Of a stretch of 64,000 nucleotides of DNA, positions 12,789 through 55,297 are shown in pieces. The translations under genes were made by a program, and so were the position numbers. The DNA comes from a virus (Duplodnaviria > Caudoviricetes): positions 36,520-100,519 of the IMG/VR virus record IMGVR_UViG_3300029305_001467; one strand, given 5' to 3'. The notes under the pieces are model-generated. The model was not told the DNA's origin. It did not search any database and saw only the letters and a program-made list of their open reading frames with translations. How positions within the stretch are numbered: the first letter of the stretch is position 1; each line of letters starts with the position of its first letter.

Positions 12789-13187
12789 CTAGTCAATAGT
12801 TTCTACATTAATCGGAATCCACATATTCGGATTGAAGTTCAGTGTGTACTTATACTTGGAAACCGCATTGTCCCCCAAATTTAAATCCTCTACTACGTAG
12901 GTCACATTATCACTAAGTCCAACAAAGTGCTTTACATAAGTACCATTATCTTCAACAATAATCTCAAGCTGGTTGTCTGCCATATCCGCAGTAATCGACA
13001 ACTTACCAGTCATCTGGAATAGCACATCGCCCTCGATGCAGTTAATAACTGTGAGCTGACGAACAATATTGAAATTATCTGCTTCTTGAGAAAGATTGTA
13101 TGATACTCTAGCTGCCTCTGTCTGACAACCGGCAAGACCTACAACCATAAAGGCTGCTACTAACAATGTTGCTAACTTCTTCTTCAT
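12789..13187 (-). CDS. Phage lipoprotein
   Basis: MKKKLATLLVAAFMVVGLAGC signal peptide with lipobox. Confidence 0.7.
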   Translation of the reverse strand: MKKKLATLLVAAFMVVGLAGCQTEAARVSYNLSQEADNFNIVRQLTVINCIEGDVLFQMTGKLSITADMADNQLEIIVEDNGTYVKHFVGLSDNVTYVVEDLNLGDNAVSKYKYTLNFNPNMWIPINVETID

Positions 13188-13854
13188 ATTATTCTCCTTT
13201 CTTTTCACCATGAAATCGTACTTCTATTACTTATAAAAGTGTAGCCAATTTCTTCGCTAAGATTTCCTTTGCATTCTTTTCAATAGCTTCCTCAATGGTC
13301 TTCTCTGTTTTCTGCTTCACAAAATTATCTAAAGTTGTGCCGTTGATTTTTCTTGAATCATCCCAATAGCTACCATTAATTAAAGCGTCAACTCTTTTTT
13401 CTACAATTCTTACAATAGTATCATCTAAATGTTTTAATACAAGTTGTTCTGCATACTTGTCCATAGCAATCTTAACCTTTTCTTCTAACTCAGCATTTTC
13501 GATTGATACATTCAAAATCATCTTTGGTTCTGACTTCTTCATTTTATATCCTCCAATTTAACTTCTTACACATACCTTGACTCAAAACCACCAGCGTACT
13601 TAATCTTATACGGTTCTGGCTCTTCATCTTGCCACGGCATCCACGCTAAGATCCCATCCCAATCAAAATAACCTAGTCCCTTACAATAATTAATCGACTG
13701 AACCCAAACTTCTCCCATTCCACCTCTTGTAACCCAAACTTCACCAGTTTTTTCCGGCATGATAGGAGCAACACCGCAATCTACCGGAATCCATACTCCA
13801 CTCTGTACCATCCGTTATCACCTCTTCTCACTTTAAAAGATAAATTCTATTGAC

Positions 13855-14907
13855 TCACTTCTTACTTCTCTCTTTTGACTTCATCATTTCATAAAACTTT
13901 ACATATTCTCTCGTATAAGCATAGCTATCAGAGAAAATATTATTTACTGCAATATATAGCTTTGGTTCGTGTTCCTTAATTACTGCTAATTCGAACTCAA
14001 AGTCTCTACCAAACGGGCAACCAGCACAACCAGTTCTAGTCAACCCATATTCGGTATAACACTTACTATGAGTAACAATATAATTTTCTTCATAATCAAC
14101 TTTGTCTTCGTTTACATACCAAAATAAAGGTCTATAATTATCACAAGTACCACCCTCGTCAAAGCAACTCTTATACGAAGTTCCTCTAATTCCACCTTCA
14201 GCTTTTCTTACTCCAAAGATATTTAAGTCATATCCTTCGTATTCAACCAACTTATGTAAGACATCTTTCTTTGCATATTTGCAACACTTTGATGATATTT
14301 TGAATTTAGGTGGACTATTAACCATGAATTCTTTCAAATATTTATTGTAATCAATATTGAATCGTATCGACTCATTGGCATTACACCACCACATCAAAGC
14401 CCCCTTGCAACCAACCCAATCTTGCTTCTTTTCATTCCATTTACAATACTTTTTAAGCAACACATCTAATGGTTCATCTTCCCATTGAAACCCATGACGT
14501 TGCAATCTATCAATCATTTCGGATGCATTCTTTGATATGAATGGTTGTCCATAAGTGCGACAACTTGTAGGAATTGGAACTATTGCTTTATATGGCTTAA
14601 TTGTTATACCATACTTTTCTTCTAAAAACTTTAAATGGTCTTTAGTTGCTTGATATTCCAAACCAGTATCAAACCAAACATACTCAACTATATTTCTCTG
14701 ATCACATTGCCAAACTATATCTATCATTACATCACTATCAGAGCCACCAGACACAGCACAAACAATCTTTTCGTACTTTGGACTGTTTATCTTTGACCAC
14801 GCTCTAACAATGTTGTCTCCAATGGTAGGATTTTTTGGACACCTTTCCAATAACTCATTAATGTCTTTTGGTTTAGTTAAATTTATACTTTTATGGTGTA
14901 GTTGCAA
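13855..14907 (-). CDS. PAPS-reductase-family (PP-loop, Fe-S) protein, possibly DNA modification
   Basis: VSGGSDS PP-loop, FDTGLEY, KCC, GVRKAE, RTGCAGCPF; poor RBS in the present orientation. Confidence 0.85.
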   Translation of the reverse strand: MQLHHKSINLTKPKDINELLERCPKNPTIGDNIVRAWSKINSPKYEKIVCAVSGGSDSDVMIDIVWQCDQRNIVEYVWFDTGLEYQATKDHLKFLEEKYGITIKPYKAIVPIPTSCRTYGQPFISKNASEMIDRLQRHGFQWEDEPLDVLLKKYCKWNEKKQDWVGCKGALMWWCNANESIRFNIDYNKYLKEFMVNSPPKFKISSKCCKYAKKDVLHKLVEYEGYDLNIFGVRKAEGGIRGTSYKSCFDEGGTCDNYRPLFWYVNEDKVDYEENYIVTHSKCYTEYGLTRTGCAGCPFGRDFEFELAVIKEHEPKLYIAVNNIFSDSYAYTREYVKFYEMMKSKERSKK

Positions 14908-15033
14908 ATACCCTTAAAAGTAGCTACTTGAAGATTATTGGAAAGGAGTCAAGCAAGTAATTCTAGATAATTGACTGTATACAGCCTTGCAAATAAAGTA
15001 TTTTGCAAGATAAAGATAAAAGTATAATTTTCT
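14877..15033. promoter_or_regulatory. Candidate invertible segment at the 5' end of the PAPS-reductase gene
   Basis: Inverted 18-bp sites with spacers TTATAC (14883-14888) and GTATAA (15022-15027). Confidence 0.55.
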
Positions 15034-15035
15034 TG

Positions 15036-15452
15036 TTAAACACCTATCTTAATAAAAGAACCATTGTGACCTCTTACCTTACCTTGTCTCATCCGATATA
15101 AAATATCACTTAACATATTCTCCATCTGAGTAAAGTCACCACTAAACATGCTTCCAGTAGTTTTAATCTCATATTGAAACTCAAGTTCATCATCAGTAGG
15201 CACAACCGGTCTTCTCATATATGTAACAGTACCCTTTGGAACTTTAATTCCGGTATATTTATCACAATAATCAGTCTGTAAAACCTTTAGCCATTCTTGA
15301 CAGTTTTTGTTATACTTACTCATTTTTACACCGTCTACAGTAAAATATCCGATGTAATCATAATCAATGTAAACGAACTTGTTCACCACAAGAAGAACAC
15401 CATCAGTCACTCGATACAGATCCTGGTATTCAGTTTCTGCTAAAATTTCTAT
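15036..15452 (-). CDS. Hypothetical protein (probable ATA start)
   Basis: GGAGGTGA-tatca-ATA in frame. Confidence 0.6.
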   Translation of the reverse strand: MEILAETEYQDLYRVTDGVLLVVNKFVYIDYDYIGYFTVDGVKMSKYNKNCQEWLKVLQTDYCDKYTGIKVPKGTVTYMRRPVVPTDDELEFQYEIKTTGSMFSGDFTQMENMLSDILYRMRQGKVRGHNGSFIKIGV

Positions 15453-15806
15453 TGATATCACCTCCAATATCTCGATAAAATTAGGCTTTCATTGCCATCA
15501 TTAATCACTTATTACTTCTCTTTTTATTCTTGGAATTCCGTTTATGTTTGTGTGTGCAGCGTCGCCAAACGCTTTTACTTAATTTTATTCATATATTCTT
15601 CCATAAACTTTAAACGAACAGCTTCATCAAAAACTTTTGAAAGAAAATCTATATATTCTTCCTTCGCTTCATTAATATCATCCGTACTAATATGAATCTC
15701 AGTTTCTGGAAACTCTGTTATGATATTATACATCTCACCATCATAAGTAATTTTCATATTTGCGTCCTTTCAAATTTTCTTGATAAATCCGAAATTTTAA
15801 CAGGAT

Positions 15807-16283
15807 TTATTCAAAATTAACTGCGCCATTTTGTCTTGCGTAATTAAATGCTTCCATCCAATCTTCGTACTTTCTAATAAACCAATCATCGTTTATTGCC
15901 TTTGAATATTCGATAGCATCTTTATGGTTGTTCTTGAAATCATCATATAATTTCTGTGCTAATACACTACCAATAACGCCCTCATTATCAGCAAAATCAA
16001 TCAACTCTTGGAACGCTACATCTCCTCTAAAATTTTCTAAATCATCTCTCCATCTGTTATATCCACTATAAGAACCTGCTGGAAAGCTATACACATCCTC
16101 AAATTCATAAACACAATTACTTTCTACTGGATAACCCTTACCTTTCCAAATAGATTCCGACCAATCCATACTTGCACCAGGCAACCACTGATTATCATAA
16201 TCTTCTGGATAGCCATCAGAATCTAAAATAGGATTTTCTACTTTTCTTAAATTTTTAAATGCTCTAATATCTAAACCCATATG
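15807..16283 (-). CDS. Hypothetical phage protein (MGLD-type N-terminus)
   Basis: AAGGAG RBS before MGLDIRAF. Confidence 0.6.
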   Translation of the reverse strand, partial: HMGLDIRAFKNLRKVENPILDSDGYPEDYDNQWLPGASMDWSESIWKGKGYPVESNCVYEFEDVYSFPAGSYSGYNRWRDDLENFRGDVAFQELIDFADNEGVIGSVLAQKLYDDFKNNHKDAIEYSKAINDDWFIRKYEDWMEAFNYARQNGAVNFE

Positions 16284-23471: not shown

Positions 23472-26400
23472 TTTCTACCTCCAAAATCTAAATAAAAGAG
23501 TTGTTTTATTTAGTCTTCATCTGCTCTCTAAATTCATTAACATAATCATAAATACTTGCATGTGTCCAACTTCTTGTTTCACTACTTAAATGCAATCCAT
23601 TATTTTTCTTTGCTTTTTCGTGAAGAAAATTAGCAAATTCATTTACTGCATAATCTCTTTCGTTAGCACAATCACACTTCCATGAGGTACATCCTGCACA
23701 ATCTTCGCATTTAGATTCTTCCGTTTGAAATTTTCTTTTAAACTCATCTTCACTATATGAAAACCACATCGGATATCCATAAGTATCACTTTCTTCGACC
23801 CACCATCCATATTGAAATTCTCTTGACACATGAACCATATCATAAGCATGTACTTCCACTGCTTTATCAGTAACTTCTACTGTTATATAATCTTGGTCAT
23901 AGTTTGGATATGCTTCTTTCAAGAACTCTTCATAATTATCCTTTGTAAGATAAATACACCTATATTGACTATTTAATATACATTTCTTCATCTTCTACCA
24001 CCTCTCCTAATGAATTGAAAATTTCATGGCTATTCCACCTTTACCTTAATATCGTTTGACAGACCACTTGTAGCCAAAATAATCTTTGCTACCTTTTCTG
24101 CATTACAATCTCTTATTAATGCTTTTGCTAAATCTAATTCAAAGAATTTTGCTTTGTCATTAAAGCTTTTTATAATAATTCCATCATATTCTTCTCGATG
24201 ATTTAGCCATCCTTCAAATTCATCTAAACACTGTCTAATATTCTCAAACATTCAATCACCATACCTTATCAAATCTAAATTCTCCATCTCTAGTGTTATA
24301 TTCTGCCAATCTAAATCGCCCAGCAGAAACTAATCCTTCTCTAAAGCCATACCTCTTAGCCCACTTCTTATTAATTCTCTTCTTTCTATGTCTGCGAACT
24401 TGAACTGTTCCTTTAACTTTCATATCAAATTCAGGACTTTTATAAACCAAAGGATTATAAAGAATAGCATCTAATACGTCTTGATCCCATTTTGTTTTTG
24501 CTTCAAAAGTAGCTTCAGTAGGTACATGTCCACTCACAGATATAGGTAACTCTTCTTCAGCAGACAACAACGGCATCTCTAACACTGCAGCCTGGATGCC
24601 ATCCATCTTAAAGCTCCGTCCAGTTTCTTTATCTTCAATAGAAACAGAACGGAAAGTGCATTCACCAACATTAAACATTCCGTACATTATTTATCCTCCG
24701 AATTATCTAACTTTCTAAAAACTATATGTGTTTTTAATAAAACTCTCTTCTGCCTTCAAAGCATCAATCATTACTCTCTTTAAATGCTCGTCCGTTACAA
24801 CATAACAAACGTCATCCGGAACATTGTAATCTGCCAAAAAATAAGTTAATGGATTCATTAAATGTTGCTCAATAACAGCTAACTTTGTTTTTGGACTACA
24901 CATGATTACAGTTGAGTTCTTGTCTGTATACTCTTTAAAATCTTTAATTGCATTGAGAATCTGTTGTGCATTAATAGGCTCTATAGATTTGTTCGTAACG
25001 AAAGTATTGAACAACCATTTATTATCTTCTTTTTCTTGTTTGATTCTTTCTTCATATATTTTTTGATTTACTTTATCAAAAAGATTATTCATTAGCCACC
25101 TCCGGGAATATCTCAAATTCTACACAAGTTGCCACACGATGAGGATTGTTGTAATCGATATCTACAGGAATGCCCAATATAGTATTAGGTTCATCCTCAT
25201 GATCATGATGAGGCACAAATACTCCTTCAGTTAATCGTGCAATTATTTCTTCTCCAAGAATAATTTTATTTGGTCTTATGTTGTAGTTATATTCCAATGT
25301 GTCAATACTGGTACGAAGGGACTTGATAATATCTTCTGCTCTCATTAGTTCTCCTTGTTCGATTGTTTCTTATCTAATTTCTACTTCTCCATATGCTAAA
25401 TCATTATTTTCAAATATTTTATAACCATTATATAATCCGCAACTTCCACCTTTACCAAGAGTAATAAATCTTAAGGCAACTTCGTTAAGCAGATTAACTT
25501 TAACATCATACTTTGATACTTTGTTTGCTATAGAAGCAATAGTATCTTTGCTCATGAAAATATATGGACGAACTTCACCAGTTACTATAGAATATTCATC
25601 AATACCTTTATCTAACTTTTCCAAATCTAGTTCTTTAATTATTGAAAACTTCTTACTCATATAACCTCCTGTTAAAATTGATATTTTATTCTGTATAAAT
25701 CGTATTCATTATTTGTGCATATGCGAGACCATCTCGATCCAAACTTATACTCACATCAAATACTTCTTCACTGTCCAAGATTAAAAATTTCAACATGATA
25801 TCATCTTTAAGCGGTTTCATTTTACTTGCATATTCAAAACAATAATTTATTACTTCTTTAAAAGAATGAAATGTTAAGTCAGCAGATATTAACTTTCTAC
25901 TACCTTTTTCTCTGATTAATTTTTCAATTACCATATTTATTCTCCATCAAACTGATTTTGATTTACTGCATAATACTTAAAAACGAATTCACCAACCTCT
26001 GCCGAAGTTGAGTAATGATAGATGTAATATCCCGCTTTCTTCTTTTCTTCAATTTCTTTTTCAGCGCAATCCATCAATTCATCATACTTATTACTTCTCA
26101 GCTCTATGTTTTCTATTCTTCTTATCAAGTAACTCACCTATCCTTATATTGACTTTTATTTTTCTTTCTTCATAACACTTCTTTGCTCGCTCAAACAAAT
26201 CAATAGTGTCCCCATTTAGAGCTGCATTAAAGTTATAATAGCAACCACCTCTGTTATATCCTTTAATTGTTTCCTTGCTATATTCAATTGCATGTTTATC
26301 ATCTGTCCAGCCACTTACATCTATTGAACCTGCCAAATAGTTACCACATTCGCACTTATAATGTCTTATGGGTCTACCATACCCATCTCGCACATTCGTA

Positions 26401-27368
26401 ATAGTTTCTTCTCCCTTGTATGGATTATCATTTCTGATTTCTTCCTTGTTGCATTCCGGGCAATAAAATAATCTACTCATAATTCACCTCTCAATAAAAC
26501 GGTACTTCTATTAGTTTGCCCAAAGTCTAATTCCACGTTCTTCACATAACATTCCAAGAAAACTACTTCTTTCACATAAATCCTTTTCATACTCTTCTCT
26601 TTCTTGGATGTCTACCAAATCATATCCAAGTTCATACATCCGTTCCGTTTGACTACCTAAAGAATCAAAAGCAACTTCGTAATACTCATCTTCTAACTCT
26701 TTATCAGTTACAGATGCGGCCCATTTAATAATTGCATCTCGTTCAGATTTCTTCATTGGTATCCTCCTTACTTATCCAACAGCCAATCCAACTCATCAAC
26801 AATATCATTCAATTCTTCGTTATCCTTTGTATATAAATCAGCGATTTCTTTATCTGTCATTTGATATCCAAGATAATCCCAACCATTAACTATAAATTCT
26901 CTATAAGTTTCTGTGTTAGTTGCTCCTTCTAAACAATCACAAATTCTTCTATCTAAGTTATCTTTAATATTCTCCATAACAACCTTCCCTTTAATAACCA
27001 ACTCTCACAACCGACACAATGCCATATTCTTCTTCATAATCTAAATTGTCTAGTGCGTCACTGGGCGTTTCACCCTCATGAATTACCGTATAACCATTCT
27101 CAAAAACTATAATCCATTTATAAACAAGTCTTCCCATCGTTACCTCCATATATAATCTCTTTAACTTTTTCTATTATTTCTAAGAAATATTTACGTCCCA
27201 TTCTAGGAGGATAACATACATATATATTATCTTTATTCTCTATCTCTTTTATAATTTCTTTCTGAATTGGAAGTAACTTAATATTGAACTTCTGCTCTAC
27301 AAATTCTATACAATCCATGTTATCCTCCTTTCTCCATGAAACTGATGTTTTATCGGGAAAATCGACCT

Positions 27369-34128: not shown

Positions 34129-34184
34129 TTCTTATTCAGGAGCAAATTGCAATTTAACCGGTATACCAAACCCATTTCCTCCTT

Positions 34185-35087: not shown

Positions 35088-35184
35088 TATTCATTAGGAG
35101 TAAATAGCTATTTGATGTCATGACAAACCTCTTACTCCTTTCTTGATAAAATTAGTATTTCAAAAATAATTTGGGAAAATCGCA

Positions 35185-51957: not shown

Positions 51958-52962
51958 CTACGAAACTCTCAATTCATTGGCTCTTGTAATCGCTTCATGA
52001 TAAATCTCCATGCTGGATTTGTCTGTACCTTTTGCTTTATCTATTGTTTCCATAATAATAAGACCAAAATCTTCTGTCTTTAATGATGTTATAGGGCTGT
52101 TTTTTATAAGCTCTTCTTCACATCCATCTAACACATTCTTAATTAAGTTTCCGTAATTATCCACATATCTCTTATTCTTTTCTTTTGTTAATCCAATATA
52201 ATCCAATGTCTGTTGTATTGTTGCATGACCAAACATTTTGGAAAGTGAAATCAAACAATCTGGGTCAAATGGATGAAGCTGATGAATCCAGTAGCCAAAT
52301 GACTTCCTGAGACTATGGGAACTGATTCGGTACTGTATCTGGCAATCTTCAACTGCTTTGTTCAGAATATTTCTATATGCATTAGTGTGCCATTTATCTA
52401 TGTCAGCCCACTCTACTCTATAATACAGATATTCTCCTAGTGTTTTATATCTCTTCTGCTTTCCAAACTCCTTCAGAATGTTTTCCTTTCGCTTATCTGA
52501 CAAATCCTTATTCAAGAACTCGCACCATTTTTCTAAGTCGTTTTCTGCATATACAGGATTTCCTTCTCTTGCAATCCAATCTGTTTTACTCTGAAATGCA
52601 AAGATAAATTCATCATAATGTTCCATCGGATTAACATTCATCTTCTCACAGTATTTATCCACCACCTCAAATACCATATGAGTAATTGGAACTTCTACTG
52701 TTTTGCCAGTTTTTTGTTCTTCAATAGTAGTCATTTCTTCTCTCTGATTTCCATTCTCATAATACAAATCAGACCATCTCATTGAAATGGTATCACTGAT
52801 ACGTCTTGCCAGTAACATTTCCAACAACGTAATCAAATAGCCATCCCATTCATTATTCCGTTCAAACCATTCAACAACATTCTTGATATCTTCCAGATTC
52901 CAGAACGGATAAACTTCCGTTTTCCCTTTCTTTTTAGTAGCATAATCTCTCTTCTGTGCCAT
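51958..52962 (-). CDS. Tyrosine recombinase
   Basis: Catalytic set: RRISD (R), EQKTGK (K), SHSLRK (HxxR), FGH...TLDY (H, Y); ATG at 52962 after GGAGG. Confidence 0.92.
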   Translation of the reverse strand: MAQKRDYATKKKGKTEVYPFWNLEDIKNVVEWFERNNEWDGYLITLLEMLLARRISDTISMRWSDLYYENGNQREEMTTIEEQKTGKTVEVPITHMVFEVVDKYCEKMNVNPMEHYDEFIFAFQSKTDWIAREGNPVYAENDLEKWCEFLNKDLSDKRKENILKEFGKQKRYKTLGEYLYYRVEWADIDKWHTNAYRNILNKAVEDCQIQYRISSHSLRKSFGYWIHQLHPFDPDCLISLSKMFGHATIQQTLDYIGLTKEKNKRYVDNYGNLIKNVLDGCEEELIKNSPITSLKTEDFGLIIMETIDKAKGTDKSSMEIYHEAITRANELRVS

Positions 52963-53245
52963 AACATCAACCTCCTTAAATACCAATCAGTTCCTTTATT
53001 ATATTCTCCAAATCATCAATGCAACTTTCTAATGTATCAATTGCATCTTCTGATTCAGAACCCCTCAATGAACATTGCAAATTCTCTGGCATATTATCAA
53101 ATGTATTCTGTTCTTCATCTAATACCTTTTGAAGATTTTCTTTACAGCTTTCAAGGTTCTTTCTAATATCTCTAATTTTGTCTCTTCTTTGTTTATTCAT
53201 GTTTACCTCCAAATAATAAGAGGAGATTTGCATCTCCTCTAAACA

Positions 53246-53809: not shown

Positions 53810-55297
53810 TTTATCAACCGCCTTTCTGTTATTCTTTTACCTTACAACTTTATTTTATCATACTTTCTGTCCGTTTTAAAGTACTTTCTACATCTGCTCT
53901 AGCTGTTCTAAATGTAAATCTTCTAAGAATTCTCTCTGCTCTTCCGTCATTACTGGAACTTTTTCTTTAACTTCATCCATAGCGTCACCTCCTTAAATCA
54001 CGAATTTTATCGTTACCCAACATATCCAATTTCTTTATCTTCTGCGTATAACAAATATTCCGCATAAGCTGCATCTGTCAAATCATACCAAGAACTCATA
54101 CTAACTTTGTCATGGTCTATCACTTCCTTATAGAGTGTTGGATATTTTTCTTTTACCTTTGGATTATGAATTACATCATAATTATCATTTACCATTTGAA
54201 CATGATTCATAATCATTGCTCCTTTCTCTTATAATAACCTCGTCCAATATGTTCTACTGTATCGGCTACATTTTTCCAAGGTTCTGTGCCTGTCCAAGTC
54301 CATTCGCTACCATAATAAAAGTCCTTGCAAGACCAATTTTCAAGCGAAGCATTTTCTCCAACAGTCTTTTTGATTCTTTCTTCGCCAGTCTTATTGTTCT
54401 TCATATGTACTGCCAGTTCCATAAACTCCTTCTCCTTTCACCATAAAACATGGATTTTATTCTGTCGCATCATCGTACTCCGAAGAAAGATATTCGAGCA
54501 GTCGCTCATAAATATCCAGTTGATGGTCATATAAATAATTGCACAGTTCAATATCTGTTTCGAAAAACATTTCTATTGCTGCTGAATCTGCCCATCTATT
54601 AAAAGCACTTCTAGTTGAAACTCTAAGCAACCACTTATTACGTGTCCCACTATGGGGTTCTACAATCAAATATATAACCGTGTCAGTTTGTGCTTGTAAC
54701 TTCCCGTTGAGTTCACAAATCTCATAGTTTCTGTAATCGTTTACAAACCATCTTTTGATATTTTCCATATTCACACCTCCTTAAAACAACCATCCGTTAT
54801 AGCATATCTCCGTGCTGTCTGGAAACTCCACATAAAATGTCAACGCTCCAAAACAGAGGAGATATGGGAGCAGTAAAATAATTGTAACTAACGGTTTTAT
54901 CAATATCATATTTCCCTCCAATCGACCATCAAATGCGGGTTCTATTCCGTTACTTCTCTTGGTACTAATTCATAAATCTTCAAGCCCTTAACAAACTCTC
55001 CCTTATCAAAAGAATTCTCACGGTCAAGAATTTCGCCAAGGATGGAATCATTTTGAAACTCAATTAAATCCACTCTGTCTCGAATTTCATTTAGAATCTT
55101 TTCTGCATCTTCTCTATTGGCAATGATAGTAGACCGATGCAAAGGCGTTTCGTACTCAACACTCACTGCTTCATGCTCTATTTTTTTGTATTGTCTATCG
55201 TATAGTGTATCTCTCTTAAATGAGATAAAGTTATAATCGCTACTTCCAATTACATACATAACATTTTCCTCCTTATACAATAAAATGTTGGTTTGGT

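Follow-up and report, generated by a model that had tools for sequence, protein, structure and literature searches.

A probable DNA-inversion switch at the start of a PAPS-reductase-like gene in large phages of gut Clostridia

Phase variation by DNA inversion is a textbook form of bet-hedging in bacteria. At fimS of Escherichia coli, the inverted segment carries a promoter, lies wholly upstream of fimA and is turned over by the tyrosine recombinases FimB and FimE, which are encoded next to it. Clostridioides difficile has multiple small switches (cwpV, flgB, cmrRST) that are inverted by the tyrosine recombinase RecV. Inversion in phages Mu and P1 involves kilobase segments, in which tail-fibre genes are swapped for host range, and depends on a neighbouring serine invertase (Gin and Cin, respectively) and a Fis enhancer. 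To our knowledge, phase variation by DNA inversion in phages is known almost solely for these tail fibres.

The G segment of Mu and the C segment of P1 are described as the classical cases of phage-borne programmed inversion (PMC12823448). Bacteria also carry partial intergenic invertons, which have one repeat within a gene and the second outside, so that inversion alters the coding sequence in its 5′ part (Milman et al. 2023, PMC9881135; Chanin et al., PMC10028968). The TPMM study reported 16 putative viral invertons, without a mechanism, with metagenome reads supporting both orientations (PMC13501310). The literature that we searched for phage invertons held recent, uncharacterised candidates only. 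Here we describe a locus that is very likely a programmed DNA-inversion switch of the partial intergenic type, carried by a ~150-kb temperate phage of gut Lachnospiraceae/Clostridia.

The locus comes from a 100.5-kb IMG/VR viral contig with an estimated completeness of 62%, part of which, a stretch of 64,000 nucleotides, was analysed here and is referred to as the window. The window has 33% G+C, and its minus strand carries essentially all genes. A preliminary description, made from the sequence alone, had pointed to a pair of inverted sites at the start of a gene of the PAPS-reductase family (P0001) and had proposed that the segment between them is invertible. Both sites (14877-14894 and 15016-15033) were found, with reverse-complementary central hexamers, as was the sequence TTGCAAA 7 nt inside each end (14902-14908, and its complement at 15002-15008). 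P0001 has a TTG start codon (at 14907) with a close AAGGG before it, and the stop codon of the gene upstream is at 15036-15038, leaving a spacer of 128 nt. Two genes downstream of P0001 there is a gene for a 140-aa protein of the Phage_VG64 family (12789-13211, minus strand, E 1.5e-47), a family labelled in PHROGs as recombination directionality factor. The features of the locus are collected in Table 1.

Table 1. Positions of the switch, the adjoining gene and the candidate invertase gene in the window.
Feature	Position	Strand	Remarks
PAPS/APS-reductase-like PP-loop enzyme gene P0001	13855-14907	-	350 aa, as read in the assembled orientation
Invertible segment, 121 bp	14895-15015	.	Between two 12-base cores
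Core copy 1	14883-14894	+	Within P0001 codons 5-9; extended arm 14879-14908; 18-base site 14877-14894
Core copy 2	15016-15027	-	In the spacer, a few bases past the stop of the upstream gene; extended arm 15002-15031; 18-base site 15016-15033
TTG start and three and a third codons	15003-15015	+	Predicted to join P0001 after inversion; from in-silico inversion compared with L005, L090 and L117
GAAAGGAG motif	14941-14948	+	Conserved in the segment of all switching lineages
Two small palindromes/hairpins inside the segment	14975-14984 and 14986-15009	.	Palindromic in relatives despite changed sequence
16-nt stretch	14935-14950	-	15/16 complementary to P0001 codons 18-23 (14838-14853) in the assembled orientation
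Tyrosine recombinase gene, candidate invertase	51958-52986	-	342 aa

The P0001 protein contains an SGGSDSD loop and an invariant CC...CxxC pattern, matches PF01507 in Pfam (E 3e-9) and was assigned to phrog_424. Its AlphaFold model has a pLDDT of 90.8, and a Foldseek search with this model returned APS/PAPS reductases together with TtuA, an Fe-S tRNA thiolase (E ~1e-6). Residues S53, G54, G55, D57 and S58 and the cysteines of CC...CxxC are invariant among 25 homologues, and both the PP-loop SGGxDS motif and the fold place the protein in the PAPS/APS reductase superfamily. Sequence-profile matches to BrxP and SspD covered the PP-loop only; a search of solved structures with the P0001 sequence gave no match, and no close relatives were found in the annotated phage records that we searched. 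Assimilatory PAPS reductase CysH was considered and rejected, since P0001 scored 27-28 bits against NCBIfam cut-offs of 154-235, is ~100 aa longer and gave a TM score, normalised to the query, of 0.4. P0001 encodes an Fe-S PP-loop enzyme, whose role may be the modification of nucleic acid, as the preliminary description supposed for DNA.

Extended beyond the sites, the inverted repeat has two arms of 30 nt (14879-14908 and 15002-15031), complementary at 23/30 positions (77%) and separated by 93 nt, and its perfect 12-mer core occurs in only two copies in the window. When the whole window was scanned for inverted repeats with at least 22/30 matches and a loop of 10-200 nt, this pair was the only one found. 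Shuffling in blocks of 100 nt yielded 0.125 pairs per window at 23/30, and because one shuffled window in eight thus has such a pair, the repeat on its own is only mildly unusual, suggestive rather than compelling; it gains its significance from relatives that carry a repeat at the same position. One arm spans codons 1-10 of P0001 and the other is outside the coding sequence, in the spacer, and since one repeat lies within a coding sequence and the other outside it, the switch belongs to the class of partial intergenic invertons. Each site in the lineages examined consists of an A-rich hexamer, six bases and a T-rich hexamer, and the centres of partner sites are reverse-complementary, in line with the spacer complementarity noted earlier for the window. 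This layout resembles the core of lox/FRT-like targets of tyrosine recombinases, a likeness that says little about any one enzyme class because the arms are only 6 bp long and AT-rich.

Relatives of the locus were collected by protein-guided searches, which gave 80 loci on viral contigs of ~90-205 kb; a further 46 came from bacterial genomes or MAGs. The hosts that are named are mostly Lachnospiraceae, along with other Clostridia. Among these loci, L090 belongs to a prophage of the cultured strain Lachnospiraceae bacterium A4. We used the SGGxDSD motif as a positional anchor for comparing the upstream regions. One repeat arm occupies the first codons, 150-116 nt ahead of the anchor, and the other ~120-190 nt further up; the arm sequences vary by lineage yet remain complementary within each lineage. 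At least nine further sequence groups had a repeat there too, with arms of different sequence, and many related ~150-kb phages of Lachnospiraceae/Clostridia carry one.

Comparison of the upstream regions by all-against-all blastn revealed opposite orientations in four lineages, and the minus-strand matches there were restricted to the segment bounded by the repeats. L003, L013, L029 and L034 matched L011, L014-L016, L018-L021 and L040 as reverse complements at 89-97% over ~158 nt, and the segment of the window matched those of L005, L036 and L090 in the same manner at 71-73% over ~155 nt. The segment of L044 was 95-96% identical to those of L043 and L076, and that of L091 91% identical to that of L117, again as reverse complements. 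The pair L013 and L018 is especially clear, with downstream flanks that are 98.9% identical and segments in opposite orientations, which are 94.5% identical as reverse complements versus 64% when read in the same direction. Among four relatives (G001, G003, G004 and G006), blast of the whole genomes identified the ~160-nt switch stretch as the only in-place inversion. Between orientations the inner hexamers of the sites are swapped as reverse complements (L003 vs L014; L091 vs L117), and this exchange of the inner arms places the crossover in the central bases. The comparison with homologous phages suggested in the preliminary description came out in favour of inversion, the breakpoints falling at the repeats.

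The largest clade of relatives (L041:1826-2025 and ~50 similar loci; also L112, L087 and L130) has a degenerate inverted repeat at the same position, enclosing a highly conserved leader of ~190 nt with several hairpins, one of them over the ribosome-binding site. In this clade a single orientation was seen, and its leader had no match in Rfam.

Evidence from single samples was sought in Logan contigs of four public runs (X1-X4) from animal faeces or gut metagenomes, which we placed on positions 14000-16000. These are assemblies at 3-7x, not raw reads, and the ratios between orientations are rough. Run X3 contains a contig of 179 nt that joins 15061-15016, reversed, to 14895-15027 with zero mismatches; at the joint, 14895|15016, opposite strands meet over 12 shared letters. 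Run X2 has a contig of 48 nt that corresponds to the reverse complement of 15032-15045 followed by 14879-14912, an inverted junction, with one mismatch that is expected from the other arm; it is accompanied by contigs in the reference orientation, and the flanks are identical. Run X4 probably holds both forms, with reference contigs and, at 48 nt, a contig with 14 loose letters that would suit the other inverted junction, and X1 has the reference form alone. The contigs of X2, X3 and X4 end or start at the cores, at exactly 14894/14895 and 15016/15027, as the assembly graph would branch there, and the depths were alike (3.3-3.5 vs 3.7-7). The inverted form exists, then, on the window's own flanks, which bears out the proposal that the segment is invertible. 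A pattern scan of metagenome contigs for the window's own junctions returned nothing, and a looser junction pattern gave 70 single hits, evidently by chance.

We also noticed, in runs X1, X3 and X4, a contig of ~28 kb at ~30x with a one-mismatch match at 14898-14919 and at 15505-15526 on opposite strands, which contains the GAAAGGAG motif beyond 14919. These three runs probably also contain a related phage, present in greater abundance, whose segment is similar.

To follow the reading frame, we walked it upstream from the anchor in every switch-bearing locus. Contigs with GAAAGG on the gene strand were called on-like (15 contigs) and those with its complement there off-like (8 contigs). In all 15 on-like contigs a start codon precedes the anchor by 153-162 nt, and in 14 of them the frame can be read through to the anchor, the exception being L019, with an in-frame stop further downstream. 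Seven of the eight off-like contigs are without a usable start, having an in-frame stop a few codons past a TTG or no start. The eighth is the window, where the frame is open from the TTG at 14907. Inverted in silico, the window would encode an N-terminus MQ-D-KDK..., compared with MQ-G-KDK... in L005, L090 and L117. As on-like contigs have a start, seven of the eight off-like ones have none and the inverted window matches its relatives, the start codon and first four codons are judged to lie normally within the segment, the window having been assembled in the other state. That inversion keeps the frame and yields this N-terminus had been predicted in the preliminary description; the agreement is partly trivial because TTGCAA is its own reverse complement, and the inverted start and first residues are conserved in relatives. 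In its off-like state the window has an AAGGG comparable in quality to the weak ribosome-binding sites found in on-like relatives. Since the window's frame stays open from the TTG, the flip in this phage may, instead of abolishing expression, reduce or change it.

The switch loci in a prophage context (L018, L036, L090 and L117, flagged as provirus or in long bacterial scaffolds) are on-like in 4/4 cases, and the off-like contigs are in 8/8 cases unflagged viral contigs or short fragments, numbers too small to carry meaning.

Aligning the segments of on-like contigs, we found three conserved features: GAAAGGA, a 12-nt motif after it, and a small palindrome with changing sequence. Across the relatives, three base pairs of the segment palindromes have changed on both sides. 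The GAAAGGAG motif, which is on P0001's strand only in the on-like orientation, had been put forward as a strong ribosome-binding site that inversion would restore to the gene; it is present and conserved, but inversion would bring it no closer than ~55 nt to the start, where it could not serve as the ribosome-binding site. The promoter-like element of the earlier account, a pair of hexamers at 14971-14999 (plus strand, 9/12 match), is likewise present in the segment but not conserved in relatives, and no conserved promoter was found in the segment of the window and its relatives. The predicted accessibility of the start in the RNA was alike in the window's two orientations (0.39 vs 0.38) and is uninformative. 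An Rfam scan of the switch region and six related loci gave no match. The complementarity between the 16-nt stretch of the leader and the early codons (14935-14950 vs 14838-14853) would become a direct repeat after inversion; it was absent from all relatives checked and is specific to the window's phage. We had also considered an RNA switch in which the upstream arm, a ribosome-binding hairpin and the early codons are mutually complementary, and dropped it as the main reading once the DNA was found in both orientations.

The contig carries two tyrosine recombinase genes, one listed in Table 1 as the candidate invertase gene and the other resembling end-of-prophage integrases. The Resolvase domain of serine recombinases (PF00239) was not matched anywhere on the 100-kb contig (62% complete), and a serine recombinase was found in 1/22 relatives; a serine invertase of the Hin/Gin/Cin type was rejected with serine recombinases essentially absent. 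A tyrosine recombinase gene is present at the same relative position in 22/22 relatives, mostly 14-39 kb upstream (62 kb in one), and a second recombinase class of ~346 aa, by our own grouping of the hits, in 19/22. Close homologues of the candidate were undetected in several near-complete relatives that bear the switch, and none of the recombinase classes in the 22 relatives separates the flipping clades from the large non-flipping clade, in which all of them occur. The invertase could be host-encoded.

The preliminary description had also regarded ~66 palindromes at gene junctions as recombination sites. This wider claim found no support: the motif itself is genuine and is shared by the switch sites, but no other in-place inversion was found in the four genomes compared. 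With up to two mismatches, the 18-base palindromic pattern has 70 copies (window 12319-63346), compared with 31-33 in shuffles, and 53 of the 70 have a gene boundary at most 25 nt away and sit, on the mRNA strand, immediately 5′ to the ribosome-binding site (for example, 23492-23509 and 54443-54460). These palindromes could be RNA hairpins, protein sites or recombination sites; a count by eye of G-U mismatches on the mRNA strand versus the other strand (6 vs 4) gave no signal in either direction. A broader scheme would unite the switch sites and the ~60-70 junction palindromes, placed ahead of the ribosome-binding sites of accessory genes, in one family recognised by one phage tyrosine recombinase, with unique 6-base centres preventing cross-recombination and the PAPS-reductase switch as the sole matched pair within a genome. 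We regard this scheme as unlikely; if true, it would mean genome-wide orthogonal lox-like sites for the exact exchange of modules with co-infecting relatives.

A relaxed repeat scan of the window for other flips gave weak candidates only. A perfect 13-nt inverted repeat (27205-27217 / 27317-27329) lies at a 66-aa open reading frame (27118-27318, minus strand), whose ribosome-binding site and ATG form the complement of codons ~34-38 of the same frame, 99 nt downstream. This repeat may be a self-sequestering RNA stem, or a second small inverton. In the leaders of two cytosine-methyltransferase genes (34129-34184 and 35088-35141, minus strand), AAAGGAG is found ~50 nt before the TTG start and pairs, across a small palindrome, with a complementary stretch immediately preceding the start. 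As far as seen, these leaders would form a hairpin rather than an inversion-bounded segment.

Could the inversions be real and yet unprogrammed? They would then be occasional recombinase-independent events, produced by template switching or by a phage single-strand-annealing protein, and the repeat would owe its retention to something else, for instance a long-range RNA helix around the gene start. An identical core of just 9-12 bases, a recombinase survey that yielded no assignable invertase and arms able to pair in the predicted leader RNA all fit this account, as does the largest clade, with its degenerate repeat around a conserved, structured leader in one orientation. However, four separate lineages show both orientations with breakpoints always in the same few bases, and contigs of the inverted form are about as deep as reference-form and flanking contigs within single samples. 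The arm-spacer-arm sites are, moreover, of the kind seen in recombinase targets, and 12 bases are very short for homology-driven exchange of the RecA type at such a frequency. We therefore hold unprogrammed inversion to be quite improbable. Even less credible is the explanation that the orientations are fixed alleles of co-existing strains or artefacts of assembly. The data are indeed low-depth assemblies, but a 12-base repeat is below the word sizes of assemblers and cannot cause mis-joins, the inverted-junction contig of X3 matches the window over 179 nt with no mismatch, and the same breakpoints recur in independent assemblies of four lineages.

A different question is whether the gene is ever off, as the flip might merely swap two N-terminal variants that differ in residues 3-5, or might mainly redirect a promoter. 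The window itself lends some weight to the former, its frame being open from a TTG either way with a similarly weak ribosome-binding site, and the promoter-like element within the segment to the latter. Still, of the 8 contigs oriented like the window, 7 have a closed frame or no start, so that a second variant is not conserved, and the promoter-like element is unconserved and too near the start to serve it. Both versions together seem improbable to us, and we favour a programmed switch that acts on the start of the gene. The phage probably switches its P0001-type gene on and off, as both orientations are found in related phages and in single samples.

In the mechanism that we propose, the switch would consist of two 18-base inverted sites, one in the first codons of P0001 and one ~120 bp upstream, each with A-rich outer hexamers flanking an asymmetric 6-base centre. 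The junctions place the strand exchange within the 12-base core shared by the two sites; a site-specific recombinase would carry out this exchange and thereby flip the 121 bp. In one orientation the segment would provide the start codon, the first four codons (MQ-x-KDK in the window's lineage) and the conserved leader. In the other, the gene would meet the far end of the segment, which in nearly all relatives presents an in-frame stop or no start, and a full-length protein could then not be made. The role of the switch may be bet-hedging over an Fe-S PP-loop enzyme that plausibly modifies nucleic acids.

Across a whole family of large gut phages, what is flipped is the start of a gene for a non-structural enzyme, and the two states co-exist in single samples. 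Should the enzyme modify phage DNA or RNA, the progeny would be mixed, some being shielded from conventional restriction and others escaping the notice of defences directed at modified DNA, which would make the switch a phage-side counterpart to the phase-variable restriction systems of bacteria. There are also consequences for annotation. Such genes are routinely counted as 'auxiliary metabolic genes' of sulfur metabolism, and in assemblies of the off state the gene would be called truncated or given the wrong start codon, as in the window.

In its working the element would resemble the small inversion switches of bacteria. The worked example of TPMM overlaps a capsid gene of Microviridae, and the term 'PAPS' is absent from the main text of that study (PMC13501310). 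The bacterial partial intergenic invertons, as described in the reports cited above, are mostly long and shufflon-like and swap protein domains, whereas here 121 bp with four codons and a leader are involved, in a phage. Unlike in Mu and P1, a serine recombinase is absent from the contig and rare among its relatives. Like fimS, the switch has short inverted repeats (9 bp in fimS, 12 bp here) around a segment of a few hundred bp or fewer that adjoins its gene; unlike at fimS, neither a conserved promoter nor an adjacent recombinase was found here. With the RecV switches of C. difficile it shares the Firmicutes context and a short segment, flanked by imperfect inverted repeats, that sits between the region upstream and the gene start; there the recombinase gene is distant from its switches, as is the candidate here, and on and off cells are mixed. 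It differs from them in being carried by a phage genome, with one repeat within the coding sequence and the start codon on the segment.
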